Source: Ascidiella aspersa (taxonomy: Eukaryota). Taken from it: a DNA stretch of 64,000 bases. The DNA is taken from assembly GCA_963924565.1 (NCBI GenBank), contig OZ004608.1, forward strand, positions 14,012,001 to 14,076,000, given 5' to 3'. The notes under the pieces are model-generated. The model saw only the letters and a list, made by a program, of their open reading frames with translations. It ran no database searches and had not been told where the DNA came from. The position numbers and the translations under genes were made by a program. Positions 5,502 to 28,600 of the stretch are shown here, piece after piece; position 1 is the first letter of the stretch; every line of letters starts with the position of its first letter.

Positions 5502-8500
5502 TCACTTGCCAACCCGGTCTGCTAAGCTTTGAATAATTTTCCAACAGCTAGACAGCCCTTCCCTGGTAGTGTTGACATGCCCTGCCGACACCCGAAGAAA
5601 GTAAATTCCCTTTTCGACCGTCGATGTCAAGAAGATAGTTTTGTCTGCCATCACTTCTTCGTAGAGACGCTCGTTCATGTCGTTAAGTTCCTAACATAAG
5701 TTATTGGATGAATTTTTTTTTATAGTTGGAAATAACTTAAATATAAGATATAAGTTCATTTACGATCCACATCATGACTACTATCTTGCATAAATATAAG
5801 GTGTATTCTTTTCAACTGAAATAGGCCCAAAAAATAGGAAATCTGATGACAAAAGATAGTAATAATCAGCGACTAAACAGTTGTGTCTGACAATAAAATG
5901 ATTAAAGAAAATGGTAACGTTTTAAAAAATCCAAAATGGCAGATAAATTTGTCACGAACCTTCTTGCTTAAATCTTTGTTAAACAGACGAAAGCAGACCA
6001 ATCCCATAGTGACTGGATATAGAACCTCGAACCTTTGATCTTTCTCTACGAGAGCTTCAAAATATTTCGCCTCGGCAATCGACCGTCGCACATGAGTGCG
6101 CAAGCCTTCCAAACCGACCATGCGCATCACAAACCAAAGCTTGATTGCTCGGAAACGTCTTCCAACCGGAAGTTCCCAATTCTAGAAATTAGTACATAAC
6201 ACAGTTAAACTTTAATTGTGGTACAATAATTTTCTTTTACTTTTTGTAATTACTTGTTCGGCCAGAAACAGCGGCTCCTTATTTTTACAATTTAGAAAAT
6301 ATTAGGAAATGGAGTCGTTATGAAACGAATTTTGTAAAAAAATTGATTTCATTAACTGAGTGATAAATTATGGTCTTTGAAGGAGCCACAAAGTGGCAAA
6401 TTCTGACAATCAATTGCTTGAAAAATAATATTGAATTTATACCATTTTTAAAGCGTTCGACGCATTTCAGCACTGCTGAATATTCTTAGTACGACATTGG
6501 TTGGTCTATATGTTTGCAAAATATATACAAACGACAATTTAAACTGCTGACTCATTTTCCTGCAAAATTATACTTTTTACACAAATAAATAAATTAAACA
6601 AAAAAACTTCTATTCAAAATCAATCTAAAAACAAATGTATTTACTAACCATGTAGTCTATGGCTATGTTTTGATTGTCGTGTCGAAGGTAGTGAGGATTA
6701 ACGTCAAAAACATTCGTCAATTCGACGCTATTTTTGACCCTGGAATGGTTAAATATAGTTCAAGCATATTATAAAGTAAAAACAAAATCATGTTGGTTTT
6801 ATCAATATACGCAAATGTAAGAGACTGTGGTCAACATTAAATGAAGAAGCATTTTTCAACACATTTACTGCAAGCTAATAAGGTGAGCGGTGGTCCCTAA
6901 TAGAGAGGCTGGTTCACGCAAAGTATAGGGTTCTTGGAAAATGTACTCAATTTACAAAGAGGAAATATGAAATCGTTGGTGAAAAAGCAGCTTCAGAAGG
7001 GCTAGACCACAGTTGTTAACACAGTTATGTGCGTGCATCTTTCATTTAACGAAATATGAAAATAGGGAAGTACGGACAACACCTATAAAGGCAAAAATTA
7101 AACTGAAAAATATTTTTGTGATACTTACCAGAACGCCGAGCAGTCGAAATTGACCATCATAAGTTTGTGCGGGTTGAAATTATAGGAGTCGCTGTACTGC
7201 GTGTAAAGTTTGTGAAACTCAGTTAAACACAATTGGTGAATTGATTTGACACAAAAGGACAATTACTATAGAGAAAAATATTACTGCGATACCATAAACA
7301 AGTCGCGAAAGTACAAGCTTAATTTTAGAGCTTTTTCAAAAAAAGGGTTATCCCAAAACAAAACTTTTTTTTAGGTTTAAAATATATCTGCATGTAAAGT
7401 GACTTCTTTATAAATTATAGGCCAGGGGTGTGTAACCTTTTAGAGTTAGACTAACGGACCAACTAAGCGTATACAGATAAGTTTTAATTCAGAGGAGCTA
7501 TGTCACATTGAGTACACAAAAATATTTACACAATATTTCAGTATGTCTGAATTAAACACGGCGATTTGGGGCAAACAAGTTGTAGTTGGTGGACTCAACA
7601 GCGGTATTGCAAAGTTTGGTTCACATTGATTTTATCTATATGAAGTCTACATCGCTTTAATTCTGTGAAGAACACACATTGCTTTTTCTCTTGTTAAGAA
7701 GTTCTTAACATTGCTTTTATATTGTACGGAAAATTTTTGTAACTTTAAGTCTTTAACACTCCTATACTAAAGCAGCACCGTCCTGTAGATACTATCCACA
7801 ACCTTAAAAGACATTTAATAATAGTAAAAATAATAGCATTTTTGGTCGTTACTACTATTTATCGGTTTGCATTGTACAAGTCTTTCTTGGTCGACGCCTC
7901 AAAAGACAATTCAAGTGTAAGGATTCAATTTTCAAATACTATTTTGGTTTAGTTTTTTCACAATTTAGATTGGGTAAGACAAAATGTCTATATATTTGCG
8001 ACTATCATGTATAAACCGTTATAGTTGGTCCAAAAGCGACTTCTGAAGGGCTAGATCGTACAGCCGTACAGGTATATATGTGTGTGTCTTTCATTGAAAG
8101 ATATGGTAAGTGCACCCCTTTAATGTGAAGTTGCTTGTACTAACAGAATGGAGCAGCATTGGCGTCATGGTTGTTTGTCGACTCGCTCCCCTCTTACCCT
8201 GTGTAGCTTAGTTGGTAGAGGCAAGGTCATGGTATGGCCGGAGGTTGAGAGATCTAATCTCTCTGCAGACTAGTTGTATTTCTAGCCTGCCTTGTTTTTT
8301 TTATATCTTTTATATCAACAGATTCGGTTAGTCCGGTGTACTATAATGCGTGAGCCGTAGATCACGGTGGTTGTACATTTCTATGTGTGTTTATCTTTCA
8401 TTGTTTGGGTCATGCGCACATTTAATCATAAAGGATTTAGGACCGAATGGTAAACAACCATTTTATGTGGGCTTTATTTCATAGGTAAAGGCTATTTATC

Positions 8501-11500
8501 AGCGCATTTAATTGTGTGGATAACATGAATGAAATCAATTTACCTCAATTCCTTCAGCAATATAACGCATCTCTGGACAAAGCAGCGCAGAACCAGCGTA
8601 AGCTGCGTCCACATGGAGCCACAAGTTTTCATCTTTACCTGTTATACAATGACATTCTGAGTTATAGGGACTATTTGTAAACAATGGATTTAATTTTCAA
8701 TGAAACGAATATGCACAAGTCTGTAAAACCTACATTCAGGTCTAGTTTACCTAGGTAATTATTGGATAAATTACTTTTGTTAATTACTTTATTACTTATA
8801 TGTTTTACTTGATTCCTATAAGTTACTTTGGATCTTTTTTCTGATAAGCAAATAGTTTAGATTAGAAGCTTACGTTTGCTAATACATAATACACAGCATG
8901 ACGTATGGTTTCGCAAACGGTTTTGCAAACATCGGATGCTAGCTTAAAACGTTTTGTGTAAGCAGTTAAGACACTTTTCACTTAATTTTTCTTACGTTGG
9001 ATAACGACTATTAAATAAACCTAGCCGAGAATGACTTTGCACTGGGAATACACGTTTGCTAATATGTATCTGTAATTCCTAATAGTGTTACTTCTTCGAC
9101 AAGGGCCATGTCCTATTTTAATTGTTAGAAAGTATTTACTCGACCCAATTTAGACACAATACGAAGCATTACATTTCGTTCAACATTGTGGAATTCTACG
9201 TAACTTATCGCGCTTACTGCAAAAGCTGCATACTATATAGTAATGTTACAACTAATTAACCCAAAAAGCGATGACAAGCATATTATAAGACGCTTAAACA
9301 TTTTAAACACTGGAAATAATACAGTTCGACTGTTTGTGTTTTGTATTTTTTTAAGTAATTTAAAAATAAATCAACGTTCGTCTATTTTAGATATGATTAA
9401 ATGTGCACTGGTGTACGTGTTTGATTTCGATGTGATTTGATGTTTTTGAGTCTAAATGTCGTTCACAGATGTTTTTGGCCTATAATAAGTTACTTAACAA
9501 CTTTATGGAAAATACTTTTAATTAAAAAGTACGATTTCGTTACTGGAACCTAGTCTTATACTCACATATCGGTCCAATCTCTTTCAGATTGTCGTAAGTG
9601 CAGCATGAAGTTGTTCCAAGTGTAGCGCAAAACTGTAGGAAATCATTAACATTTGGCTGAATATAGATTATTTTAATTTTTAGGAATGCTGCTATATTCG
9701 TGGTAAATTTTGGCAAAACCAAACCGATTGTTGAATTGCATGTTTTTTATACAGATATTCTCAACTTTCTTAATCTCGTTGGGTTCATAAGAACCTGTCG
9801 AAGGGATCCACAGACTCTCTTTAAAATATTACTTTTGTTCCTGAGCGGTGTAAATATGCAGTTTATTTAACAGGGACTATAGTGACTATAGTCAATTCGT
9901 TGCTGTTCAAAAAATCAAGCAGCAGTTAGGGTCAGTTTCGCTCTTCGCATTTTAGATGTAACATTGAGAATATGGCATTTAATTGTTTTTTTCTTCTGGG
10001 GGTTGACTGAACCGGTATGAAAAAAACGTAACATATATTTTATCATGAAAGGATTGAACGGGATTCTATTAGACCTATTATTCCTTAAATTATTTCTAAC
10101 AGATACAAGAATAGTCTCACAGTAGAGTGCAACTATAATTTAAAGCTAAATAAATACAAAACATTAACAATAACAAAATTCGCAAACACAGTAGATATCT
10201 TAATAACGGCCTTATTTTTTTGTTGTCCCAAAAGCTTACAGCTTCACTGAAGGCTTTAAGTCTTATACAGTGGTGGGATTCAAAATTTTTATCAGCCGGT
10301 TCTATCACAAAAGTCATATTTTTTAGCCGGTTCTGTTACAAAAAGTCATACTTTCTACTTATGACGCAACAATTCGATATTTAGACAAACAATCAAAAAG
10401 GAAAAATACTACAATTATAAAAATTAACACAATGTATAACTGTTACGTGCAAACTTGACTATTGCATATTAAAAATTACACTCAAAAATCGGTGTATCGG
10501 ATAAGATGCAAAAATCCGTTGACAGTAATAGGGTGTATCTTTATAGAATCCAAAACCATCGGCAGCAGGTTTTAGCCAGTCGATCACTGCTCCGCTGACG
10601 CGTATATTAACAAGTAAAACTCATTGTTAAAAAACATGAGTAAAAACAGGATCAGACGTTTTGTTCAAAGGAAAATCCGCTGACAGTATTAACCCGTAAT
10701 TCTAATTAACCGACTTAAGCCATAAAACCGAGATAAGAACAACATCAACGTCGGAATAAAAGACAGTTCGGAACAAAACCAAACTAGGAGTAATTCCACC
10801 TAATAAAATCTGAATAAGTTCTAAATCGGTCCTAAGTTCATAACTAACTCACCTAACAATTTTCACTCTAACCATTTTATTATCCCAGAATTAAACAAAA
10901 CCAAAAATATGTTGCTAAAACAGCGGCACCTTTTTCCAGTCGCGGACCAAAACCAGAACAGTGAATTTCTCATTACAAATTCTTAGATTTGCAGAGGTGT
11001 AGATTACGTTACTACCAGTGGTGGGATTCAAAATTTTTGTCAGCCGGTTCTGTTACAAAAAGTTATATTTTTCGGCAAATAATTAAAGTTGTTGCAATAA
11101 CAGGATGCAACCCCTGGTTACAGCGGAAGGTTTGAACCGGCTGAATACCATCACTGCGAACAGCCACACTAAAAAGCAGCAGTCGTCTCATGACTCGTAC
11201 TTATGACGCAACAATGCAATTTCCAGACAAACTATTAATGAAAATTATTACAATTATAAAAATTTAACACTATGAGAATTGCACATTTTGAAAAAAACAC
11301 GTAAACTACTTGGATATCAAAAATCGGTGTATCATCTCAGTTAAGATGCAAAAATCCATTGACAGTAACCAGTAATGCTAACCGGTTCGCTAATCTCATA
11401 AAATTTCGTGAGACGGTTCTATAGAACCGGTGCGAACCGGCTGAATCCCACCACTGGTCTTATATCGTCTAATGGAGGTTAAAATAAAAATCTAAATGTA

Positions 11501-14500
11501 ATGTTCCCCTTCGTTATGAAGCTGCTTGTACTAACAGATTGAGCAAGCATTGGCGTATGGTTGTTTCTCGACTCGTTCCCTTGTGAGCCTGCATAGCTCA
11601 GTTGGTAGAGCGACGGTCCCGGCTTGACCGGAGGTCGTGAGTTCGAACCTCACTGCAGGCTAGTTGTTGTTCTAGTCTGCTCTGCTTGCATCATTGATCG
11701 ACAGATTCGGTGAGTCTGCAATGGCTTTTCGGTGTACTAATAATACGTAAGCCGTTATCGTTGGTCAAAAAGCAGCTTCAGAAGGGCTAGATCTCAGTTG
11801 TAAGCACACATATATGTGTGTACATATGTTTCATTGTATTATGATATGATACTGGCGATCCCCTTCGTTATGAAGCTGCTTGTACTAACAGATTGAGCAA
11901 GCATTGGCGTATGGTTGTTTCTCGACTCGTTCCCTTCTGAGCCTGCATAGCTCAGTTGGTAGAGCGACGGTCCCGGCTTGACCGGAGGTCGTGAGTTCGA
12001 ACCTCACTGCAGGCTAGTAGTTTTTCTAGTCTGCTCTGCTTGCATCATTGATCGACAGATTCGGTGAGTCTGCAATGGCTTTTCGGTGTACTAAATGTAA
12101 TGTTCTATCATTAACTGAGTTGAAATATTACCAACACAGAACATGGGCCGCGGTTAATTGGAATTACAAGTAGCACTAAACAATACTAACATATATTGGA
12201 ATTTTTCCTCGGGCCTTGTCCTCCTTAATCGCTTCGAGAAGGGTCTCTCCCCGAACTGCTCCTAATTCATCTGCCTCCAGAAAGCGCATGTGCACCAGAG
12301 AAACTTGACCTGAATTCGATACACTTTAGGTAGAAGTTGCATTGCAGTTTTTTAACTTTACAAAAGTTGTGCCCTTGAAGACCTACTTGCTCTTTCCACG
12401 GACGAGTGACTATAAGAAGAGGTATAGGCGACCAATCGGTTCACGATCTCGCAGGTTGATTGGTCAGGGTTTAAGGCCAGTTGCTTTCGCACCGTTCTAC
12501 TTCGAGCAGAAAGCAAAGACATGAGTGTTGCTTCGCTTGCAGTTGCTGTTTGGAAGAATTTCGGTGATAGCAGTTGTACGTGATATTGTAATATATGCAT
12601 ACAAACACAACCAACTAATTGACAACCTAATGAAAAATTACAACACGAAGCAGATAAGCCATACTAATTTCTTTTATTTTGGAAAGAGCTATCCATCAAA
12701 TTATTTCCTTCGTTAGTAATATGCTACACCAGTGGTTTTCAACCGCCGGTCCGCCAAATATATTACAATTTTATATCTCAATTGTAAAATGCAAGATGTT
12801 GAAGGCTTGTCCAACAAATTTAGAACTTCGCCAGTACCGTAAATTGTAGCATTGTGACATAACATAGAGTTATTGGTCGACCTTTAACTTTATCGTACGT
12901 CACAATGCTGTTGTGCGAAACTGTTTAAAAGTAGGCTTTAACTTTTTTAAGTCTTAAATGTTAAAACCAGTTGTATGTGTCAAACCACGTATAACACATA
13001 TGATATCAAAAATACAGCAGCAAATTTCTCATTTAATTGAAGTTTCCACTCTTTGCTTTTAAGTTGCATGCTTTTGTCGTAATTACATATTGGGTTGATT
13101 TGTTTTTTTTGAACGTCCACCGGTCCTCAAATTTTGTTTTGGAATTTTACCTGTCCGTAAGCTAAAAAGATTGATAACCACTGTGCTACACTATAAAGGT
13201 GACATATCATAGTAACGGTCGGAAAACCACAACATTGCAAAGTGTCTTTGCGTCTCCAAATTCTGACCTTGAATAACCCCGCCACCTTTTCCGTTTCCTT
13301 CATTCAAGTAGAACTGTGGAAGATCAATAGCTTTTGCAAGCCAATCCATCACCACCGTTTCTAACTCGGTACAAGAAGGCGACGATTCCTAAAAAGAAAT
13401 AAGAAATTTTTAGAGTTGAATAAAATTGCTGATAAATTCTACTGAGTTCCAAGATCACAATCTTTTGTGACTTTCAAGTCACATTTCTCGTCAATTTAAT
13501 TTAATAAAACAACAAGACAACCTTAGAAATTATACAAAAAAACATTTGTATCCTGTCCTAATTATTCAGGAAAATGTTCCGGTTTGGGCTTTTTTATATA
13601 ACTTTTTGTGTTTACTGCTGTTTTTTTGCACTTAATTTGCATTTTAAAGCAAGTGAATTTTTTTAAGGCAGGGATTGGAAACCTGCAGTTCTTGGACACA
13701 ATGTAGCCTGCTTGCATATTTAATGTGAGCCGCATATTTAATGTGTCAAAGTTTTCTAAAAGTTAAAACTTAATTAAAACTCTACAAACATTACAAACAA
13801 TAAATACTAGTTATGCTGTAGTAATCAACAAGTATCCCTTTTGGAATTTCTTCTTACCCAAGTAAACCCAATATCGGCGATCGCAGTTGACAACACGTCG
13901 CCCAACATCGCCGGGTAGCTGTTAGCCGCTGGGAAAAACCCAAACATGTTGGACGAGTGCCATTGAAGAACGTTTTTGGTGACGTCAACGATATCTTTGA
14001 ACACATCCTGCCACTTTTCTCGCCCTTCGGGGGCTTCCTGGGGAACTAGGTTGCGCATGAAACCTTAAGAAAACGTAAATGGTAATTGCGTTGACTTTCT
14101 AGGCATAATCGGAAAATGTTAAGGTTTAAAAACGCTTTAACCAACAAGGTTATTTCGTGTGGCTTAAGAACACGTTTTATTTTATTGTTAAAAATCGTGA
14201 CGTAAATGCACTTTACCACAATATAATAATATATTTTTCTAGTTAGTGCTATCGGGTTCTTTTTAAGTTTCCGGTTGAATCTGGCAGATATTATATCATT
14301 TTTAACCTTGGTATTTGTGTTTTGTATTATAGAAGTCTTTTTTGTGTTTTATTAGTTACATTCTAAATCAGTGGTCGGCAAACTTTGGGCCGTGGCCCAA
14401 ATGTGGGCTGCAGAGCAATTTTTGTGGGCCGCGAGTTTCTTTTGAATAGCTTATAGTGTTTTATGTAGTTGTGGGCCGCGCGATAGACGTATTCATTGCA

Positions 14501-15573
14501 CTTGTTGGTGTGGCGTAAAATTTTTAAATTGGCTTAGCTTGGAAAGAGCCACGTGTCAAATGTAGTCCTGGGAGCCTGTCGAACTACATTTGTTGCCAAC
14601 TTTAATTATATGTAAAAGCAATTTTTTTCGCGCCTTGCGTGTATTGTTTCCTTTTATAGTGTGTTACATTAATGCATGGTAGTATTTTCAGCATCAAGTC
14701 GCCAATATGTCACCTTAAAGTCAAATATGTATCCGGCACTGTTTTCGTATAATTTTTACTTAGTGGGGGTTCAATAACTCTGAAACGAGTACTTTGGGCC
14801 AAGACAAAGAACTTTGCCGGCCACTGTACTAACGCAACTGTGGCTTTAAGGTAAATTTTTGTTACTGTTTTATATGGTTGGCTCACGGAAGGACGAATAA
14901 GCGCCAGAGTTCATTAGTCATATCAAAAAGGTATGGAAAAAAATATATATTAAGGATCACCCATTATATATTCAAAAAATGGGGGGAATGTACCAAACCA
15001 TAAATTTTGCCCGTTTTATTAATGTAAATGCCAAATGTTTTCGAATATTTTCTGTCTATCTAAATGTTGACACGAATTAGGCAAAATTGTGATAATCTTG
15101 GGAAAAACTTAAAAAAAAAGAATTGGGAAAACTTTTTCAACATAAAGGCAGAAATAGGTTGAAGACCACTGGCTTTAACGCATGTGGTAGAGGGCACTAA
15201 CTACCATCAGTTTAACCGCTGGACTGCACCGGGACAAGTTTTTAATTTATTTGCACATTTAGAACTTATACGTTGATACTGGATAAGGCATCATTTTTAC
15301 AATTCGCTACTACTACTACGATAAGTTGTAGTTACAAATAAGTTCTGCATTTTTCTGAAACATTGTGGAGTTTGCACCGGGACCCACCGACTAAGTTACT
15401 TCCTCGCTGTGGCACTTACCAGGAGTTACATCAGGCATGGGTTGAACGTCTTTAATGTCTTCGTTGTTCTGAATGATATAGTCTACCAAAGCAACTGAGG
15501 CCTCTCGATATTCTTCAGTCGTCAGTCCTCTCCGTGGTGATGCTTCGAAGACGCTTTCTGCGGTTTTGTTCAT
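5502..15573 (-). CDS. DDC: Aromatic-L-amino-acid (DOPA) decarboxylase-like group II PLP enzyme, 11 exons, 496 aa
   Basis: Exons 15573-15420, 14063-13858, 13388-13268, 12545-12387, 12309-12191, 9632-9566, 8638-8544, 7196-7129, 6739-6649, 6181-5960 and 5690-5502. All are GT-AG and phase-consistent, totalling 1491 nt. Motifs: [56 protein letters not shown] (PLP lysine), [14 protein letters not shown]. Whether this is the DDC orthologue or a lineage-specific paralogue is uncertain. Confidence 0.92.
6973..7058 (+). mobile_element. Short fragment of the 354-bp tRNA-mimic repeat family
   Basis: Matches about 11757-11848 (tcgttggt..aaaagcagcttcagaagggctaga...). Flanked by the direct repeat gaaatatgaaa at 6962-6972 and 7051-7061. 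Confidence 0.75.
8015..8404 (+). mobile_element. Diverged, circularly permuted copy (more than one unit) of the tRNA-mimic repeat family
   Basis: Colinear with the 11505-12094 array but starts at a different point of the unit and runs across the unit junction. Degenerate cloverleaf at about 8198-8270. Confidence 0.8.
10268..11456. mobile_element. Composite non-autonomous hAT element (MITE) in a DDC intron
   Basis: TIR cagtggtgggattca...tgaatcccaccactg with a perfect 8-bp TSD gtcttata (10260-10267 and 11457-11464). There is a second internal left end at 11016. Confidence 0.9.
11505..12094 (+). mobile_element. Head-to-tail 1.7-unit array of a 354-bp tRNA-mimic repeat
   Basis: Near-identical units offset by 354 bp. 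Flanked by the direct repeat ctaaatgtaatgttc at 11492-11506 and 12091-12105. Confidence 0.9.
11587..11660 (+). other. tRNA-like cloverleaf inside the repeat unit (second copy at 11941-12014); not a canonical tRNA
   Basis: Acceptor stem gcctgca/tgcaggc, D stem gctc/gagc, stem cggtc/gaccg with loop ccggctt, T stem gtgag/ctcac with a ttcgaac loop. Pol III A box (tagctcagttgg) and B box (gagttcgaac) are present. U33 and purine 37 are missing. Confidence 0.8.
12730..13183. mobile_element. hAT MITE
   Basis: TIR cagtggttttcaa...ttgataaccactg with a perfect 8-bp TSD tgctacac. Confidence 0.9.
14369..14826. mobile_element. hAT (Charlie-like) MITE
   Basis: TIR cagtggtcggcaaa...tttgccggccactg, internal gggccgc subterminal motifs, degenerate TSD. 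Confidence 0.75.
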
Positions 15574-16292
15574 GGATAATTTCTATTAAAGGCGCTGAAA
15601 ACGGTACTAAAATACCCTAAGAAGGAATGGGAATGTCGTCAAAACGAAACGGTTACAATAGGATTAATCCGATAAAATGTTGTTAAAATATATGGCTTGC
15701 ATTTCTGTTGAGCGTTAGCCTATATACTTTAGGCCTTTAGAAGGTGTCGCACACATATTTTTTGTTATTCAGCTAATCTGAAAAACCAACCTGTTCTAAA
15801 ATGGCGGCAGTTTTGAATTCGTATGACAGTATGACACGTACACTGCTTACGGTTGCCCGTGACCATCAACATTTAAACATCGGTCGTCGTGTTCATCTAC
15901 ATTGTTTATTACAGTTGGTTCAATGTTAATGTCTAGTGACGTAAAGTTGGGCAACGCAATGGGGTAAGTTAGGAACATTACTTCCTAACGCTACAAAAAT
16001 TGTACAAACTAAGAAAGGGCTAAAGTAATAGGTAAAATGTCTGATTTCGATATAAGAAAATGGTATTAATTGGCACAGAAGGCGGCATATGCAGGGTTTC
16101 TGTAGTTTATGTAATTGACTCATTTGTCTGTCCCCTTAACAAAGAACAATGTAGCTTTATATTATGTTTCCCAATTGTTGGAAAGCTAAGGCGCCATCGA
16201 GCATATACAATACGGTAGCTTGCTACATACTATAGCATCGTTTACGTTCCGGGACCCGAATTACTAAGTTACATCCTCGTTGTAGCACTTAC

Positions 16293-16446
16293 CAGGAGTT
16301 ACATCAGGCATGGGTTGAACGTCTTTAACGTCTTCGTTGTTCTGAATGATATGGTCTGCCATAGCAATCGAGGCCTCTCGACATTCTTTAGTCTTCAATC
16401 CTCTACTTGGGGATTCTTCGAAGACGCTGTCTGTGGTTTTATTCAT
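16293..16446 (-). CDS. Duplicated (distal) alternative first coding exon of the DDC-like gene
   Basis: 154-nt copy of exon 15573-15420 with an intact ATG, an open frame and the same phase-1 donor (G|gtaagtgc). It also has the same upstream cattccttcttag acceptor. 12 of 51 aa differ. Confidence 0.8.
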
Positions 16447-18285
16447 CTTTGATTTCTAATAAAAGCGCTTAAAAAAGTACTCCGATAACCTAAGAAGGAA
16501 TGCTAAAGTCGTTAAAACAAAACACAATACTAAACTTCCGATAACGGTCACAATAGGATTGTCCCGACACAATTTTTTTTAATTTATGGCTTCTGCGCGA
16601 TTTCCTATGATGTGTCGCAAACAAATTAGTTTGACAAAGTTTTAAAACAATCAAATCACATTTATGATCTCCACAGACACTCCAAAGTTATCACGTTAAA
16701 TAAATTTGCAGAAATCCGGGATTTTTCCCAACACGATATGCCAGTTTTTGTTAAAAATATGGAAATCTTCTAATGTTTATACCAATAAATCGGAATCTAT
16801 TTAGATTTTTCATTTTAATTCCATGGTATTTTTCGACATTCAAGGGCTCGACGCAGTGCTCCTGTTTAGCGCATTTTTTAATAATGTTTTTTTACTGATT
16901 TCAAACGCCTGTCTTCTTACATGGCTTCCGTGATCAATCTTTTTTAATCTACATAAAATACGTTCAGTACCCACTTTTACTGTACCAATTTTTCCAAATT
17001 TTCTTACATTCCGGCCCGAACTAGTTTTTATTTCGAGTTATGTACAAACAAAACACAGTGCCCAAATTATTTTTGGGAGGGGTACGAGCATAAAAGGCTG
17101 GGTATCTTGAAAAATATATATAGCTTCATAGCGATACGGCTTTAACCTAGAAAACATCCGTGTCGTAAATCTTTTGTACCCGTTGGCGCAATTTAAGTAG
17201 GTCATGGTGGCACAAGGCCGCACAGCCCCACTTTATAATGTGGTACAGAAGTCGACTCTGGTACAAAAGTATTCGCAAGCTACATTTATTAAATTAAATA
17301 TTAGATTTAATGGCATGACAAGAACACAAACCGTATTTGTATTTTTTTTTATAAAAGGAAATGACGTAAATGAGCCGAACGATATTAAGTTAGGAAACCA
17401 TGATTTAATTTTGTTTATTGTGATCTGTTACGACCATAAATGCAAACTTGTTTAGTTAAACTTTAGGCGAAATCGTACATAAAACAACCGATCAGAGCTT
17501 TAAAATAACGATACCTATCTCAACAAAACCTCATCACATAAACGCTGCAGCTATAACTTTGTACGAATACACCGCACCATTTACATCCGCACATTCATCC
17601 GTACGACGTTTGTCATCCGAATTACATTTTTTTCATCCGCACAAGTTGCGCCCACGGTTTGAAAACACCGATCTACATTGTTTATTACAGTTTTTTCAAT
17701 GTGAACAGTCCTATTTCAGAACAAACGTAAATCGCCTGGCGCTTGTTACCGGGTATTACTCAGCGAGATAAACACATTGAATTACATGTGTTTAACTTTA
17801 AAGTGTGAATAACCATGTAACAGGCAACATAATAAAAAATGCCGTTTGATATTTTAGCTTATTTGAAAAATAATTGTTTTTCAATAAATTTTTATGTTCA
17901 TGTTAGTTGCATAAAAAAACATAAAAAACTTTCATTCCCCAGAACATAAAAAACTTTCATTTACGCAGCTAAAATCCAGGTTGGGGGCTACAATGCAACG
18001 CGTTGATAGGCATTAAGTATCAATAATTAACGAATAATAGCACAACCAGAACTATTAACGTGACGCTTCCACATCTTTGTTATTTCAAATAGTTTTACGT
18101 CGTGATGGTTTACTTTCGATGAAATAAAGGGTAAAAAAACGTGTTCTAGGACAGGCTGACAACATTCGTGTTTACGCCATAAGAATGTTACACCGTAATT
18201 CGTGCTTTTTGCTGTATTTTGATCTGTGGTGTAAAATTTTTCAATATAATCGATAGACTAAAATTTATCTATGTTGAACTGCGAA

Positions 18286-18525
18286 ATTTATTTATAGTAT
18301 GGTTTCCAAGACAGCATCACATTATGTGGTTTTAACATATTTTTTTGGTGCCATGGGTATTTAATTTTGGCTAATGATTTATTTATAGTATGGTTTCTAA
18401 GACAGCATCACATTATGTGGTTTTAACATATTTTTTTGGTGCCATGTGTATTTAATTTTGGCTAATGATTTATTTATAGTATGGTTTCCAAGACAGCATC
18501 ACATGATGTGGTTTTAACATCTTTT
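18286..18525. repeat. Tandem repeat, about 91-bp unit x about 2.6
   Basis: atttatttatagtatggtttccaagacagcatcac... recurs at about 18286, 18377 and 18468. Confidence 0.9.
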
Positions 18526-20677
18526 TGACAATAAAAGTGCATAACAAGTAAGTTAAACAGTCAATGTTTGGTGATAAAAACAGTAGTGATAAAAAAATAG
18601 CAACTTTAATAGGAAATATAATGTTGCCTATACTGATTATTACGATGGCGATCAACCATGCAATTACGGAAATATATTCATAATAGTAGAAATCTCATAC
18701 CATTCTAGATACCCAAGCCTTTCTCTGGCCCACAATTGCTTCCTAAAGGCGGATTAGGTTCTGAAGGATATTTTGTGAAAAACACGGCGCAAAAAATTGG
18801 AAAGTTTAGTGGTTTGAGTTCGTAAAATAAAATTTGACTAGATTTGTTATTTTTAACTTATATAATTTAACCCCATTGAAATTGTTGAACTTATTACACA
18901 CTATACATAAAAGTAACCTGTATTTTAAATCTGTAGTTTGTGAGATTTGTTTTTCCATTTTACTCAATCGATTTTTCATTGATGTGGATCAAATGGACGA
19001 ACCGGTTGACTGGCATGTTTCTGTTAGTTATTTTACCCAGGTGTTGTCCACAACATCTAATGCTCCGACTTTTATGCTAGACCCGCCTTTAACCAATTGT
19101 TCCCACTTTATTAGGTGATTAAACACGATGTTCTTAACCTCTCAAGTCATCCAGAATCTGCACATCTACTACTAAAACCCGTGCTTAGAGTTCATAAGTG
19201 TGAAAAGCAAGCTTGAAATGTTTTTTATAATATTTCGAGTCGCTCTATGATGTTGATGTAGACTTATAAGATATTATTAGTTTGCGGCTTTAAGGCTATG
19301 TACGTGTTGCGGTCTTGCAACATCTTTAGCCGTTAGTAATTACTTAAGGAATACTAAATTAACACACTCAGTAACCCAGTGGGTTTTAAACATTCGTGCA
19401 TTTCATAGGCGCCGGTTACCACGCAATTTACCTCGCGAATCTGTGTATGACTATAGCATGTGATATCACTTTTTATTGTGTAGATAATGTTGGATCAATT
19501 AGGATAGTATTCAGATATAGGAATTGGTATAGTGTATTTGTCGCCTAGTATTGTTGCCGTTTTGAAGATATATTCTATGATAAGGGAAAATGTTATGTAA
19601 AAGTCTTTGATTATAGTTGTTTATTGTTTGGTCGATAATGTATGTAAGTTACTGTAATGCTTAAGCTCGTTTTTGTTGCCAATAATTAATAATGGTATTT
19701 ACGTTTCTTGGTATTTTTGAGTATCAGGCAGATAGTCTTACTGCGGCAGAAAATTAGCGCTAAGATACAAATAATCAGAACTCACGCTAAATTTTTATTT
19801 ACGATATATGAGATCGTAAAATTGGTCCCCGAGTAACTTGACGTTTTTGTTCTGCTAAAGTAATATCTGCAATCACACATTATTATATTATGTCTATTCT
19901 TGTTAATTAAATTTGACAATAATGCAGTCCGCAAAGAAAGTTTTAACGCACTTAACGGATAAAAAATAAAAACGATAACGATTTAACTCAGTTAGCACAT
20001 GAGAGGTTAGCTGCTTTGACCGTTTTAAACCAGGCTAATTATGCAGTTTGAAGTTTGGATTGCACGCCATAAAGTATAATAGGGTTGCCAGCTGATATAA
20101 TGAAATATGATCTATTGCCGGAAAGCAGTCTGTCAATGCATGGGACGCACCATGAAGCGGCCCACGTATTAACACTTTTGCGCTCTGCTTACACATGTAA
20201 AAGCTAACATTGACGCGACGCCTTTTCGCTGGAAAAACGACACGCATGTTATTTTTCCACTCCGTTTGCGCGAAAATAAAATAGCACCTGAAAGGGAAGG
20301 TCCTTTTCGCATTGTAGGCTACGTTAACGCGCACCAATTTAACTGTCGATTTGTCGCAAAATGAATTGCGCACGATTCCGCGTAATGAGGCTTATTCTAT
20401 AACCTTAAACCATAATATCACTACTGCACTACTGAATGATAAAGCATTTTAACGAAAAGTAGAATTCAACGAAATTCAATTGCTCGTTAAATTGAACGAA
20501 GTTTAAAATGCAGATTTCCGCTTGTAAATGTAAGCATTTTTCTGTGAAACAATGCATAATTATTTTGTAAATAAATAACGTATCAGACCGTGTGGTTGTG
20601 CAGTTTTATGTTTGACAATGATAGCAGTAATGCTACTTATCGTATGATTAATGTGATAATTAAGTTATATATGAATT

Positions 20678-21012
20678 GAAGTGATCGGAACACTTTTGCA
20701 AAAAATTCCGGAGGTGACGGCCACCTTTGCAAAAAACGGAAGTGATCGGAACACTTTTGCAAAAAATTCCGGAGGTGACGGCCACCTTTGCAAAAAACGG
20801 AAGTGATCGGAACACTTTTGCAAAAAATTCCGGAAGTGATCGGAACACTTTTGCAAAAAAATCCGGAGGTGACGGCCACCTTTGCAAAAAACGGAAGTGA
20901 TCGGAACACTTTTGCAAAAAATTCCGGAGGTGACGGTCACCTTTGCAAAAAACGGAAGTGTGAGGGGCACTTTTGCAACACTCCCTTGAGGTTTGAAAAA
21001 CACCTTTGCAAA
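20678..21012. repeat. Array of alternating 33-bp (A) and 28-bp (B) hairpin units inside the LTR element
   Basis: A = ggaagtgatcggaacacttttgcaaaaaattcc; B = ggaggtgacggccacctttgcaaaaaac. Order is ABABAABAB plus two degenerate units. Confidence 0.95.
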
Positions 21013-22322: not shown

Positions 22323-23278
22323 ACGGCTACTGAACTGCAGGATCAAAGCATCGCTTTTTCCTTGCAACAAACAAGTTTTACAGTTAAAGATTTACATGCT
22401 GGGACAGAAGCACTCGCCCGCGACTTGCGAAACTTTGAACAAATGCAACGTTCCGAAGACTGTCAACTATTCCGCCTAACACAACAAAACCGTCTTCTTG
22501 GGCTACAGAACCAACGTAAGCAACTTGAGACGTCTCACATTTCTCTCGCCACTTCAACCGCTGAACGGGATTTGCTCCGAGCCTGCCTTCGTTCACTACA
22601 CACCCTTGGAAACCTCACCCGGTATAACACTTCGATTTATTCCTTCACCTCATCGTAAGGCATTCTAAGATTTTCTCGCCTTGCAAGAATTGAGTCTATG
22701 GAAGCCTCCAACACTTCCGATACGAACTTCACTGGAATCAGCGCGATCCTCCACCGGCAAAACACAAACATCTCTAAGAAACTTGAAGACATCGCGAGTT
22801 TCGACAACACAAGCATAAATCTAACGTTCAGCAACTTTCGTCCTTTGGTTTTCACTGAGGATAGCCACCTATTCAACTTCTCGCATGGCGCTTTCTTTGC
22901 TAATGCTGGTGCAGGACCCAACTCAATCGAAGGCGTCCGTGACATAGGATTTTAGGCCAACCCCTTTCAATGGTGGCAATCATCGGAAGTTTGGCGCTAG
23001 CAGCATTTTTACTTCTCATCGGCGGATGCTACGCATGGAATCGTTTTCGTCACAGTAAAGACAATGGCAAACACCGACAAGGAATCGCGTTTTCAACTCT
23101 CTTAAAAAGGGCGATGGCATGTTGCGGTCTTGCAACATCTTTAGCCGTTAGTAATTACTTAAGGAATATTAAATTAACACACTCAGTAACCCAGTGGGTT
23201 TTAAACATTCGTGCATTTCATAGGCGCCGGTTACCACGCAATTTACCTCGCGAATCTGTGTATGACTATAGCATGTGA
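22323..23278 (+). pseudogene. Degenerate envelope-like type I membrane glycoprotein, C-terminal part
   Basis: ORFs 22362-22658 and 22698-22955 are in the same frame, separated by a single TAA. A frameshift near 22950 leads into ORF 22970-23278 with the TM helix MVAIIGSLALAAFLLLIGGCYAW followed by a basic tail. Many N-x-S/T sequons; canonical env position just before the PPT. Confidence 0.65.
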
Positions 23279-24500
23279 TATCACTTTTTATTGTGTAGAT
23301 AATGTTGGATCAATTAGGATAGTATTCAGATATAGGAATTGGTATAGTGTATTTGTCGCTATGTATTGTTGCCGTTTTGAAGATATATTCTATGATAAGG
23401 GAAAATGTTATGTAAAAGTCTTTGATTATAGTTGTTTATTGTTTGGTCGATAATGTATGTAAGTTACTGTAATGCTTAAGCTCGTTTTTGTTGTCAATAA
23501 TTAATAATGGTATTTACGTTTCTTGGTATTTTTGAGTATCAGGCAGATAGTCTTACTGCGGCAGAACATTAGCGCTAAGATACAAATAATCAGAACTCAC
23601 GCTAAATTTTTATTTACGATATATGAGATCGTAAAATTGGTCCCCGAATATCGTAAAAGTACGGTAAAGACAAATCACAAAATGTACAGAATTCGTTACA
23701 CAGGAAATTATACCAAGACTGTTATTCTCACAAGTGCAGGTTATAAATATAGCGTTTGATCCCATGTATCCCAATGAAAAACAACTCTGTGCAACGCTTA
23801 TAATCGTGCCGGAAGTTGTCTGTCTCATAGTGTTCAAGTTCAGTAGCGGATGACGTTTGTATTTAATTGCATGTTTACAAATTTGTGCATTAAGTTCGTG
23901 ACAAGTTTGTCCATTTTTGCAAAATAATGCTGGTGTTAAGAACAATCTTCTTCGAGTTTTCCATTTGTGCACGAACGTTTAATCGCCTAACTGAAATGCT
24001 AATCTAGTTGTCCAAATCTGCCAACAAATACTTTTAACTGAAACGTTTACTCGATCTAAAGACACAAGCTACCACCAGACTGTAGGTAGACGCTGATTAA
24101 CATAATTACATCGCCCAACCAGTATTTAAGAAAACCACTAATCAAACAAAAAAGCGCCTTTTGTCCTTTCTGTGCAATAATTCTGAAAAATTATTAAAAA
24201 CACCATAGGCCTACCTATAGAATTCAGATTTTTCTGCATTAAACATAACACTAAAATCACATTGGTTTTGTGAAAAAAATCACATTGGTTTTGAGAAAGT
24301 TATCTTTCAATCGTATGAAACACGCACTGAGTCGCACTCGTCTTAGTCTTATTTACGTCTTTAGACAGTCTAAATTCGCAACGGTAATAAACGTGCGCTA
24401 CAACCCGACTATAGGCCTCTTTATGGCACCTTTTAGTCGTCTAAAATTCGTTTTCGTCTTGGTCATATCTGCGTCTATGGGAAATCGTAAAGGTAATACA

Positions 24501-24729
24501 ACTAGTACTGCAGTAAGGTTCGAACTTACGACCTCCGGTCAAGCCGGGGCCGTCGTTCTACCAACTGAGCTATGCAGGATCAGAGAGGGACACGCGAGAA
24601 ACAACCATGCGCCAATGCTCGCTCAATCTGTTAGTACCGGTACAAGCAATACAATTGAAGGGGATCCACAGTACCATATCATTTATTCGATGAAACATGC
24701 ACACATAAGCGTTCTGATAACGGAGATCT
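24501..24729 (-). mobile_element. Circularly permuted partial copy of the tRNA-mimic repeat family
   Basis: Reverse complement of about 11787-12020, spanning the unit junction and the cloverleaf. Flanked by aggtaataca (24491-24500) and aggtaatgca (24730-24739). Confidence 0.85.
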
Positions 24730-25553
24730 AGGTAATGCACACTTATTAAAATCGTTTAAAAACACATTTCAAATATACTCTCGTTTTGGGTGTTTAAGGC
24801 GTCTTCTTGTCATTTTTATTCGTCTAAACTCGTAAAACACCTAAAAAACATCATTTAAATCGAGTACAAAAACGTTTTTATGGCGTCTTTTGAACGTCCA
24901 AAACTGGTTTTCGTCTTGGTCTAGTTTTCGTCTATGAAAAATCGTAACGGTATTTCACGACCATAAAAATCGTTTGAAATACGTGTCAGATATGATCTCT
25001 TTTGGGGGGTTAGGACGTCTCAGGTATTTTTTAATTCGGCTAAAACGCATTGATTATTTCGTCTTTTAAGTTACACATTTTCGCAACACTTTGGTTATCA
25101 ACACTAGAATTACCGCGTTGTTGACAAACCTAAAACTACCACGAGCGGTCAAAATAACTGTTAGTTCAATAAGAAAAATGCAAAATAATTGCGTTTTCTT
25201 TTCATTAGGAGTTTCTTTTAACTATTGAGACGTTTCAGCGTTTATCTAGTTTAAGTTTAGCAAAACATTGTATTTCAAATGGGCCTTTATACCGTCGGTG
25301 TTGTTCCTACTAACAAAAACAGTAAACGTAATTGTGCTTCCATAACGCTATCCGTCTTACCGCACACGGATTAGTTTTAAAGTAGAAATCACTACCGCTC
25401 CTGATATCATGCAATATTGCGCTTTTAGTTTACAGACCCCAAACTAGTTTAGCGGATTATTAGAATTACAACACTATATAACACATATATTTTCAAGTTT
25501 TCGGAAACTATGAAACCATAGGAGGAAACAAATTACGAAAGGATGTTTTAACG

Positions 25554-25624: not shown

Positions 25625-28600
25625 TCAAGAGTTTAAGCGACGCAGAAAGTCTTTGATCTGAAATTTAAAGGCATTGATAAGCAAACCTAAATAAACTGGT
25701 TTACTATTAAATAACGTAACACAACTTTACGCACGCATGTAATATTGTCTGGTATTTAACGAACGGTAAACAACACAGATCAATAACTTTTTGGACACAA
25801 AGTGTTAGGGTCTTTTATGATATTTCTGGGCCCACGAGCCCGAAAATGCGTTCATTGTTTTTTGATTAGTTTGTTTTTAAAAGCTCTACTTTTCAAAATA
25901 TTCGTCAATAAAAATATGTTTAATTTTCCACGAGTGTGGTGTCTAGCAACGTGGAGGTTAAATCAGACTTAATGCAATATTTTTTTATCTTAGATTTTGC
26001 TAATACCACATCAATGTGCAGATTCAAACCTTACTTTGAGCTGGGAGATCAAGTTAATTTCGGGCTTCGCGCAAGTTTGTAAATGTTCCACAGAAACTAT
26101 TTGTTTCTGGACTTAAAGCTAAATAGATAGCAATCACTTAAACAACTTTCCTCTCAGATATACGCCATGTCGCATTTTGAGGGTAACTTTTTGGTCAATA
26201 AACAATAAATGACTGTTTGTTTGTTGCATTAAGGCTTTTTTATTTCTTTGAATGTACCTGGGCGTACTCACGCTATGCCTATGTGATGTACGAGGCGACG
26301 TTTATGTATTCGTAGGCGAAAAATGCGAAAAAAATAATTTTGCGATATCTCAGAAACTAGAGCAAATTCAAACAACCCAAGTCCATTTTCGGAATCAGGG
26401 GCCCTAAAGTATCATTAGAAAATTGTTGACCCGGTAATTAAGCCACGTGTTACTTAAGCCCAAACGAACAAAGCTCACCATTGCGTATCCCAGCAAAGGT
26501 CGCTGGTTTGAATGCAAATAACCAAGTTGGTGCTCGATCTCAGATGCGAAGTCGGTGGCGAAGCTGGTTGCGTTGCGACGCTCGCCCGGCGAAATTAGCA
26601 TGCAGCCTGGGAAGTAATGGACACAAGATCATTTGATTTAGTGTTAAGATTTTCTTTCAGTGTTCAGTTCACTCAAAGCAGTGGTTCTCAAAGTATCACC
26701 TGCGACCTAAACATGGGTCGCGCAGTGTCTGCCAAGATGATTCAAATCTGTTGACACCATCTTTTTTTATTCAATGTTGTGAGCTTTTTTAATTCCACCG
26801 GAATTGAATTAGTGCATTTTACGTATTTCATTTAGCTTCATCTCAATAAAACATGTTTTTTGTTTACCGTGCCGTAACAGGTTCCGAGAGTTAGCCAAGT
26901 AGCTTGTAAGACTTTAGGTTAATATTAGTTGATAACGGGAGTGTCTTTGGAGTTGAATAGTTCAGCAAGTAGGTAGTGGAGTATCAAGACACTGAAACAT
27001 TGATACACAGGGGCGTACAACTGCGATCTGGCCCTTCAGAAGTCGTACTGACCAACGATAACGCCACACATATCATAGTACACGAAATACCTTCAAAGGG
27101 CTAACTAAAATCAGTTAATCAATTCAGGAATATTTGATGAATTGTGTAAGCAAGGCCCGACTACAAAAACAACTAGCCTGAGGTGATTTTGAACTTACGA
27201 CATCCGGCCATACAGGGATTTTTTCACTGTTGTCAGTTTCACAACTTTTTTTAACAACAAAAAATATGACCTAATTGACCGTTACTTGCCCCACGACTAA
27301 TGAGACAAAAAGGCCATTGGATAGGCCGTGATCTTGTTGATCACTCATGGTAAATCCAAGGGATGAAATTACACGTGAAAAAGCAGGAATCCATTCTAAC
27401 TGACACAACAAGTTTTAAATATAAACACGACGTTAAACTCTTGTTAGTATTTTTAGATTGGCGAAACACCACATTTTAAAACAAAAACGTATACATAGGT
27501 CAAGTATGAATCGTACTGCAACTGCGACGCCAACACAATTTCGGCGTTACTTACCAAGTGCGAGGGCTTGCAGATCGAGCGCCTTGAAGTGTTGAGCCAC
27601 ACCGGAGATGTCGATTCTCAGCAAAACGGGACACTTCATAAGGAAGCGGTACGAAGTCAGGGCCGCATCGCGCTGAAACGTAGAAAGTACATACCACAAT
27701 CAAGTGTTCGTATTGCAAAAATATGTTTCTTAGTGGCCTAATATTGTCGCCATATTAATGCCCCATATAAGTCGACCAACAAACTGAAAGAGAGTAGGGC
27801 GAGAGCAGTAACCCCTCTAAGATGCGCAAATGCGCAAATTGTAGACCGGGACATTTGTGCGGCAAAACTGCTTTTTTCGCACTTTTGCAATAAATTTCTT
27901 ATTAGGATTAGGCAATAAACAAAGACAATTGTTAAAAAACTATAAAAGCACAAAAGTACGTAGAAGCTATATGAATTAAATGCGTATTTGTTCGTAATTC
28001 GGTAAAATTGTACACAAATTTTACCAGTTTACAACATTTCTAACTTATTTGTCCCTGTGGTAACTCAACGTTATTCATGCTCAACAAAACATACATTTGC
28101 AGCATACAAAGTTTCGCGAAAGAGACACTGGCAAAAAGTCTTTTTGTAGCTGACAACAAAAAACAACTGCTTACGTTTGTCTACTTTTCGATTCGATAAG
28201 TTGTAAGGAGGCTGGTACTTTTACAATATCGATAAGTTATAAGGAGGCTGGTACAATTACAATATCGATAAGTTGTAAAGAGGCTGGTACTTTTACAATA
28301 TCGATAAGTTATAAGGAGGCTGGTACAATTACAATATCGATAAGTTATAAGGAGGCTGGTACAATTACAATATCGATAAGTTGTAAAGAGGCTGGTACTT
28401 TTACAATATCGATAAGTTATAAGGAGGCTGGTACAATTACAATATCGATAAGTTGTAAGGAGGCTGGTACTTTTACAATATCGATAAGTTATAAGGAGGC
28501 TGGTACAATTACAAAGCTTGAATACTTTGTACTTAACTGGGACAAACCTGTCGAGTGTCGAGTGGTGGTGTTAGCGCCACTAGCGGCAGTGTGACGCACG

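Follow-up and report, generated by a model that had tools for sequence, protein, structure and literature searches.

A high-copy 354-nt repeat in Ascidiella aspersa with a tRNA-like cloverleaf and a long hairpin: a candidate retroposon copied from RNA longer than one unit

What kind of element is the 354-nt repeat found near 11.5 kb in a stretch of the Ascidiella aspersa genome (GenBank assembly GCA_963924565.1, contig OZ004608.1, positions 14,012,001 to 14,076,000 of the forward strand), and does the long hairpin in its unit imply a multimeric or circular RNA, as an earlier note made from the letters alone had proposed? The whole 64,000-nt stretch is called the window below, and positions are counted from its first letter. 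We favor, with a probability of about 0.6, the reading that the repeat is a high-copy, non-coding, non-autonomous retroposon with an RNA polymerase III (Pol III) promoter, whose transcripts would read through into the next unit and enter the genome by target-primed copying.

Anatomy and copy number of the repeat

The insertion at 11505-12094 is 590 bp long and consists of 236 nt, a further 118 nt, and the same 236 nt again, which makes 1.67 units where the earlier note had spoken of an array. On the plus strand, a 5'-truncated unit of 236 nt (11505-11740) is followed by a full unit of 354 nt (11741-12094) that carries its tRNA-like cloverleaf internally and whose ends are predicted to pair. 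The two overlapping parts (11505-11740 and 11859-12094) differ at 3 of 236 positions.

The insertion lies between two identical copies of a 15-bp direct repeat on the plus strand (11492-11506 on the left, 12091-12105 on the right). Its last 2 nt on the left are shared with the 5' end of the element and its first 4 nt on the right with the 3' end; the duplication is counted as 9-15 bp. The repeat occurs just twice in the whole window, on either side of the insertion, and in a control of 3165 window pairs at equal spacing only two shared at least 12 nt, one of which was the insertion site itself. Variable-length duplications with short end matches are a mark of target-primed reverse transcription, and the 15-bp repeat is likely to be a target-site duplication. 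Because the duplication brackets all 1.67 units, the template RNA would have been longer than one unit. The one 3' end that is intact (12094) lacks a tail of simple repeats.

The family is abundant in reads. In DNA run X23 the depth over the unit was 6,700-20,700, against 8.0 over the flank, which corresponds to ∼830-2,580 copies with at least 85% identity; depth was highest over the cloverleaf and the trailer. Head-to-tail continuity was seen in ∼5,100 DNA reads (2,844 and 2,268) that pass from the end of one unit into the start of the next. A contig from run X9 joins 12093 to 11871 through 125 letters, giving a unit of 348 nt. An RNA longer than one unit, which the earlier note had derived from the hairpin, is thus supported by the bracketed 1.67 units and by the reads, and not, as shown below, by the hairpin.

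Each unit contains the motif GTACTAA twice. The occurrence at 11883-11889 has CAG after it, a combination that we take to resemble a splice branch point and acceptor; the one at 12088-12094 sits at the intact 3' end.

The long hairpin

Positions 11760-11889 of the plus strand form a long hairpin with stems 11760-65/11884-89, 11770-80/11871-81, 11781-86/11861-66 and 11790-98/11851-60. As sequence complementarity it is real: the arms 11770-11780 and 11871-11881 match each other perfectly in reverse complement, as first described, and the inner helices reported with them (gaaggg with cccttc, and gatc..cagt) are borne out, with mean pair probabilities of 0.9-1.0 for 11781-86/11861-66, 11790-93/11857-60 and 11794-98/11851-55 as well as for the outer pairs 11760-65/11884-89. 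The stretch 11761-11891 folds at -44.6 kcal/mol (z-score -4.71), with none of 200 shuffles as stable. A z of -4.7 or lower was reached in one of 320 grid windows (131 nt each, across the 64 kb), to be read with the proviso that 11761-11891, unlike the grid windows, was picked by hand.

A diverged copy at 8 kb has the same outer stem in a weaker form (z -2.62; 5 of 200 shuffles as good). The long helix retains 10 of its 10 pairs there, one of them altered on both sides (G-C to A-U) and another from A-U to G-U; the next seven pairs survive with the bulge displaced by a single base, and the outer stem as a whole gains two wobbles. The letters of the 8-kb copy are the commoner ones in reads (89% at 11876, ∼65% at 11867), so that two subfamilies keep the long helix.

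Read variants point the same way. We considered 40 of the 88 variants, of which 25 lie in the unit: 10 fall at paired sites, and seven of these would still pair with an unaltered partner. Among the listed transitions at paired sites, seven of eight keep pairing, against an expected fraction of 0.55 (p 0.06). Read mapping skipped 11741-11829 as repeat, so that the read variants come from outside the 5' arm of the hairpin. A predicted 9-bp hairpin at 12009-12034 (plus strand), which would sequester the 3' acceptor strand of the cloverleaf, has its pairing kept by all three read variants listed in it, and two variants in the acceptor stem of the cloverleaf likewise preserve their pairs. The structure of the long hairpin is probably maintained. 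Its 5' arm (11772-11786) has an alternative partner in 11932-11946, 87% complementary over 15 nt, which takes in the leader of the tRNA and the first part of the acceptor stem; this pairing is not kept in the 8-kb copy.

Does the hairpin need a multimer or a circle? The earlier note had it closing across the junction of units and had concluded that a transcript starting at the tRNA must be multimeric or circular to form it. We found otherwise on both counts. The position 11858|11859 only matches the 5' truncation point at 11505; in the unit 11741-12094, as in the 8-kb copy, the two arms lie together without interruption. For a linear RNA that starts at the first cloverleaf (11587), 305 nt, which is shorter than a unit, suffice to include the two arms, and the hairpin folds in it; the RNA has only to read through a T4 run.

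The proposed check of the circular fold against shuffles was run and came out as predicted: the 354-nt unit folds as a circle at -124.4 (z -5.0), matched by none of 150 shuffles. Linear permutations of the unit reach z -5.2 to -6.2, however, so folding energy does not discriminate a circle from a linear RNA. The claim that the whole unit is highly structured is supported for the 11.5-kb unit; the fold of the whole 8-kb unit is not clearly better than shuffled sequence (z -1.61; 3 of 100 shuffles). Two further helices that had been read from the letters (cagattc/gagtctg and gcaagca/tgcttgc) appear in lowest-energy folds but are not among the pairs with a probability above 0.5 in the ensemble of the unit.

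The tRNA-like cloverleaf

Cloverleaves lie at 11587-11662 and 11941-12016 on the plus strand, with an RF00005 match of 55 bits over 75 nt, and are likely to serve as internal Pol III promoters. The second is preceded by a leader (11896-11940, plus strand) that is conserved among the window copies. Functional tRNAs are expected to have U33 and a purine at position 37; the anticodon loop here has C at the usual U33 and T at 37, and the stems are broken in other copies. The cloverleaf is unlikely to be a working tRNA, and we rejected a functional tRNA gene on the grounds of C33, T37, the stems broken elsewhere and the more than 800 copies. Its origin from a threonine tRNA is a guess. In about 30% of reads the anticodon loop (11973-11979) differs at 11977 and 11978, so that it contains the triplet GGT and then A. 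The repeat explains false tRNA-Ala(GGC) calls in the genome.

A T4 run downstream of the cloverleaf (12080-12083, also 11726-11729; plus strand) is a candidate for a weak Pol III terminator, and the second unit also carries a T5 run at 12021-12025. The T4 run is shortened to T3 in 1,452 of 13,869 DNA reads, and another 4,208 loose ends fit T3; since T3 is this frequent, templates that allow read-through appear to be common.

A proposed mechanism and the points against it

We propose that Pol III would start at the internal cloverleaf and that the transcript would pass the weak T-run and continue into the unit that follows head-to-tail. This RNA could then be copied into the genome by target-primed reverse transcription, with an enzyme borrowed from a Penelope-like or long interspersed nuclear element (LINE) partner. 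The 4-nt target match would prime the copying, which would begin at a favored 3' end (position 12094) and stop at variable points. With the promoter internal, only copies longer than one unit would yield a complete RNA, and the family would therefore survive as partial tandems. The long hairpin and the other stems may be kept because RNA is the replicating stage, for stability or enzyme binding. We infer the Pol III transcription, the 3' cut, the partner enzyme and the role of the hairpin. Loose ends at the end of the unit in runs X24, X3 and X9 share ∼10 letters and then diverge (agreement 0.54-0.67), which suggests, on mixed consensus lines, that many copies stop where the intact window copy does and that this is a preferred 3' end. 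As to the form of the template, a linear multimer takes about two thirds of the weight we give to this retroposon reading and a circle about one third.

Several results weigh against this proposal. The 3' end lies 11 nt past the T4 run, and simple termination does not explain it. At the five loci of the family in the window, the proposed 3' end is used once and a target-site duplication is seen once, the other four loci sharing 0-7 nt. None of the 83 open frames of at least 80 amino acids in the window is a reverse transcriptase, an endonuclease or a GIY-YIG frame. The pairing-preserving change that the earlier note had seen in the 8-kb copy stands as one two-sided change with every pair of the long helix kept, but it does not amount to significant covariation: across the five window copies, only two of which span the helix, two-sided change was found in one of 31 pairs, and 277 of 500 shuffles reached this. 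Covariation in the cloverleaf was not significant either (two of 21 pairs, reached by 105 of 500 shuffles); both pairs are in the T-stem, with two different two-sided changes in the 8-kb and 24.5-kb copies.

The RNA reads weigh against it as well. In run X24 (one complementary DNA RNA-seq run chosen by its species label, of which ∼6% was read, with library selection not specified and 11741-11829 left out), the share of the element was 166 reads per million, compared with 3,243 in DNA. Element reads fell on both strands and showed no pile-up of starts or ends. After correction for strand bias in DNA the sense excess came to 1.1-1.75 and was greatest on the 3' side of the cloverleaf, with the strandedness of the run judged from few host-gene reads. 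This pattern fits passenger transcription in introns and perhaps some Pol III product.

Ribozyme search and the possible circular template

A circular template, as in viroid-like or retrozyme circles, had been suggested in the earlier note. In its present form this branch of the proposal would be a viroid-sized, Pol III-driven circular RNA retroposon: the multimer would be cut once per unit in a boundary loop, by an unrecognized, new-class self-cleaving motif or a host tRNA-processing nuclease, the paired ends would be held and closed by ligation, and the circle would be reverse-transcribed more than once round, a retrozyme cycle that dispenses with the hammerhead. Unit lengths of 354 and 348 nt and low GC (guanine plus cytosine) content fit metazoan retrozymes (PMC7229834). 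The ends of the unit are predicted to pair (11749-56/12074-81, p 0.9; 11743-46/12086-89, p 0.7), and a predicted boundary hairpin (11720-11756, plus strand) places the junction 11740|11741, equivalent to the 3' end of the insertion, in a 7-nt loop. The near identity of the overlapping parts and the z of the circular fold likewise speak for this branch.

The boundary hairpin is weak, however (z -2.0), and was not recovered in the 8-kb and 27-kb copies; the linear permutations, as noted, fold equally well. Nor did we find a known ribozyme. Rfam returned only tRNA, and no ribozyme, over the whole window at the gathering score, and no ribozyme family in the 11.5-kb and 8-kb copies at E up to 10; any motif of up to 236 nt lies contiguous in the scanned insertion. 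The sub-threshold matches (mir-5697, Plastid-ycf2, HOTAIR_2 and GNAS-AS1_3) were taken as chance. The hammerhead core CTGANGA was absent from both strands at all five window loci. CTGATGA does occur in one subfamily of the reads, at the equivalent of 11852 and in 2,639 loose ends, but its letters complement the 5' arm of the hairpin, and no GAAA follows in the aligned part; for this 348-nt subfamily, the ribozyme test covered all but ∼65 of the 125 unit-specific letters. Likenesses to two ribozymes, twister in the region of the long helix and CPEB3 (its P4 stem) at 12055-12072, were dropped after comparison by eye with the other copies and the read variants, as the required bases are not kept and Rfam gave no match. 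Reads over the unit boundary fit an RNA circle and tandem DNA alike. Overall we consider a circular template unlikely.

Other copies and a possible ordinary tRNA-derived origin

Besides the insertion, the window holds a copy of one unit followed by the deleted start of the next (8004-8404, plus strand; the diverged 8-kb copy), a partial copy with the 5' arm of the hairpin (6971-7068, plus strand), and two minus-strand partial copies, one covering unit positions 201 to 81 (24498-24731; position 1 is the first base of the cloverleaf) and one crossing the unit boundary from unit position 31 to 260 (26982-27218). The five loci start and end at differing positions of the unit and share one circular order, and two of the four further loci run across the unit boundary.

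A sister repeat of ∼130-150 nt has its leader and cloverleaf in common with the unit and no long hairpin; it, too, is arranged head-to-tail. Its joints connect 12018 to 11896-11914 by way of ∼16-32 other letters, among them a variable GCAG repeat, and the listed joints comprise ∼1,000 DNA reads. Since this repeat is tandem without the hairpin, the hairpin is unneeded for tandem arrangement as such.

The sister repeat also favors another account, in which the mobile element is an ordinary 154-nt tRNA-derived short interspersed element (SINE; 11941-12094) whose source was tandemly duplicated with ∼200 nt of flank at the DNA level, longer copies spreading by recombination or as RNA polymerase II passengers and the hairpin being an incidental inverted repeat. 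It would suit the peak of read depth on the cloverleaf and trailer, the low RNA reads on both strands and the covariation tests that fell short of significance. But the direct repeat brackets all 1.67 units rather than 154 nt, and all five window loci include sequence beyond 11941-12094. In two subfamilies the long helix persists, with one pair changed on both sides and the bulge displaced, and the excess of pair-keeping transitions also speaks against an incidental hairpin. We regard this account as doubtful.

Words of the stretch also turn up in metagenomes (marine, seawater and sediment) and in runs that carry the labels of seven other organisms; no RNA run was among those listed, and runs with small shares of these words were not used. 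In X3 and X9 the repeat is present with almost no flank; these runs could come from relatives or from stray DNA. Pattern scans for further copies gave 0 and 0 loci in metagenome contigs, 0, 0 and 1 in viral contigs, and 0 and 2 in prokaryote genomes; these three loci were matches of only 19-27 nt and were dropped as chance.

Alternatives drawn from other transposon classes

The layout of repeat, spacer and repeat, with a tRNA-like sequence in the repeat, recalls Helenus-type TRIMs (miniature retrotransposons with terminal repeats), and 590 bp is within the 311-1263 bp of Helenus (PMC10886601). Here 11505-11740 and 11859-12094 would be long terminal repeats (LTRs) with a tRNA-like promoter, around a 118-nt internal part, and an LTR retrotransposon would have moved the whole. 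The duplication of 9-15 bp compares with 4 bp in animal Helenus and with 4-5 bp for Helenus and TRIMs taken together (PMC10886601). Neither strand shows a TGG primer site after the first repeat, and other copies begin and end in different registers. LTR ends are typically TG...CA; the ends here are TC...AA, with TG...CA on neither strand. This reading is already contradicted at the 11.5-kb locus, and for the family we hold it to be very unlikely.

A TC start and a CTAA end are Helitron end motifs, and the insertion can be read as having both, in head-to-tail copies, as might result if a non-autonomous Helitron with a captured tRNA had spread by DNA rolling circle. The 9-15 bp duplication flanking the insertion, a target that is not A|T and an internal unit junction not followed by TC stand in the way, and we give this reading scarcely any credence.

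Comparison with known systems

The repeat is not a retrozyme (no hammerhead found), not a Helenus element, and not a SINE in the strict sense of SINEBase (internal head, tandem copies). Returning to the preferred reading, a read-through retroposon, its closest working likeness would be to the Schistosoma hammerhead SINEs and metazoan retrozymes, with an insertion resembling those of non-autonomous Penelope-like elements and with no recognizable ribozyme. The Schistosoma SINE-like repeats have an internal Pol III promoter and occur in tandems of at least two. Those of the Sm-alpha and Sj-alpha type resemble the present repeat in their short non-coding unit, in a Pol III promoter away from the 5' end of the propagated unit, in their tandems and in multimeric transcripts as the source, but they have a hammerhead that frees monomers, where we found none and see a 130-nt rod-like hairpin instead (PMC6765202).

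Metazoan non-LTR retrozymes are defined by a type I hammerhead and abundant circular RNA (PMC7229834). They share with our repeat tandem units of 150-450 bp, a GC content below 50%, the lack of LTRs, primer binding site and polypurine tract, a duplication of more than 4 bp (here at one of five loci) and a highly self-paired predicted RNA (PMC7229834). In contrast, the repeat described here has a tRNA-like cloverleaf and no hammerhead found, and is known from DNA and from one RNA library with neither enrichment nor defined ends.

As movers of retrozymes, Penelope-like elements are only proposed (PMC7229834). A partial tandem is described for these elements and their non-autonomous derivatives, and Naiad and most Chlamys elements are without hammerheads (PMC8557442). 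Non-autonomous members such as MRC1 show a 5'-truncated copy before a full copy (pseudo-LTR), head-to-tail order and variable-length duplication (here at one locus). The available text of that source reports no tRNA-derived promoter for them (PMC8557442).

In common with the tRNA-derived SINEs of SINEBase, the repeat is shorter than 1 kb (354 nt), has more than 100 copies, is tRNA-related over at least 60 nt (75 nt), and is non-coding and dispersed; it differs in that the tRNA lies 200 nt into the unit rather than forming a 5' head, in its head-to-tail copies and in lacking a simple-repeat tail (PMC3531059). Helenus TRIMs are alike in length and in having a tRNA-like sequence within a terminal direct repeat, and unlike in their TG...CA ends, primer site, much shorter duplication and absence of permuted copies (PMC10886601).

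We found no description of the 354-nt family, or of a ribozyme-less tandem retroposon with a tRNA promoter, in the literature searched; repeat databases (Repbase, Dfam, SINEBase sequences), subscription journals and supplements lay outside the search, and the family may already be catalogued there. If the preferred reading is true, SINEs and retrozymes would be linked by a unit with an internal tRNA promoter that needs copying over more than one unit and has no recognizable ribozyme. The repeat would then be a small, high-copy test case for how multimers gain a defined 3' end without a hammerhead, and also for which reverse transcriptase moves retrozyme-like repeats. Should there be neither circle nor cleavage, it would be an unusual repeat of an ordinary class.

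Genomic setting and neighboring repeats

The window is animal genomic DNA with a GC content of 31-42%. The minus strand carries exons of an aromatic amino acid decarboxylase (at ∼12380-12650 and 5880-6180), and exons of KNTC1/Rod occur at 29-61 kb. A decarboxylase exon had its best matches, at 54-64%, scattered among several animal phyla, and a search with a KNTC1 exon returned none. The insertion is intronic in the decarboxylase gene, with its tRNA-like strand antisense to the gene. Flank read depth, from few reads, gives a rough genome estimate of ∼240 Mb.

Several other repeats were observed in the window. An element resembling a miniature inverted-repeat transposable element (11014-11458), with perfect 17-bp terminal inverted repeats, adjoins the insertion on the left; an end related to it is found at 10268-10323, and a similar element begins near 12728. 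A palindrome at 12848-12909 lies inside the sole grid window with z below -4.7. A direct repeat of 531 bp (19305-19835 and 23120-23650) has 98.7% identity and is possibly a young mobile element. Finally, a separate dispersed repeat of 265 bp has three copies in the KNTC1 region (36455-36717, 43032-43296 and 51508-51772) with 75-79% identity.

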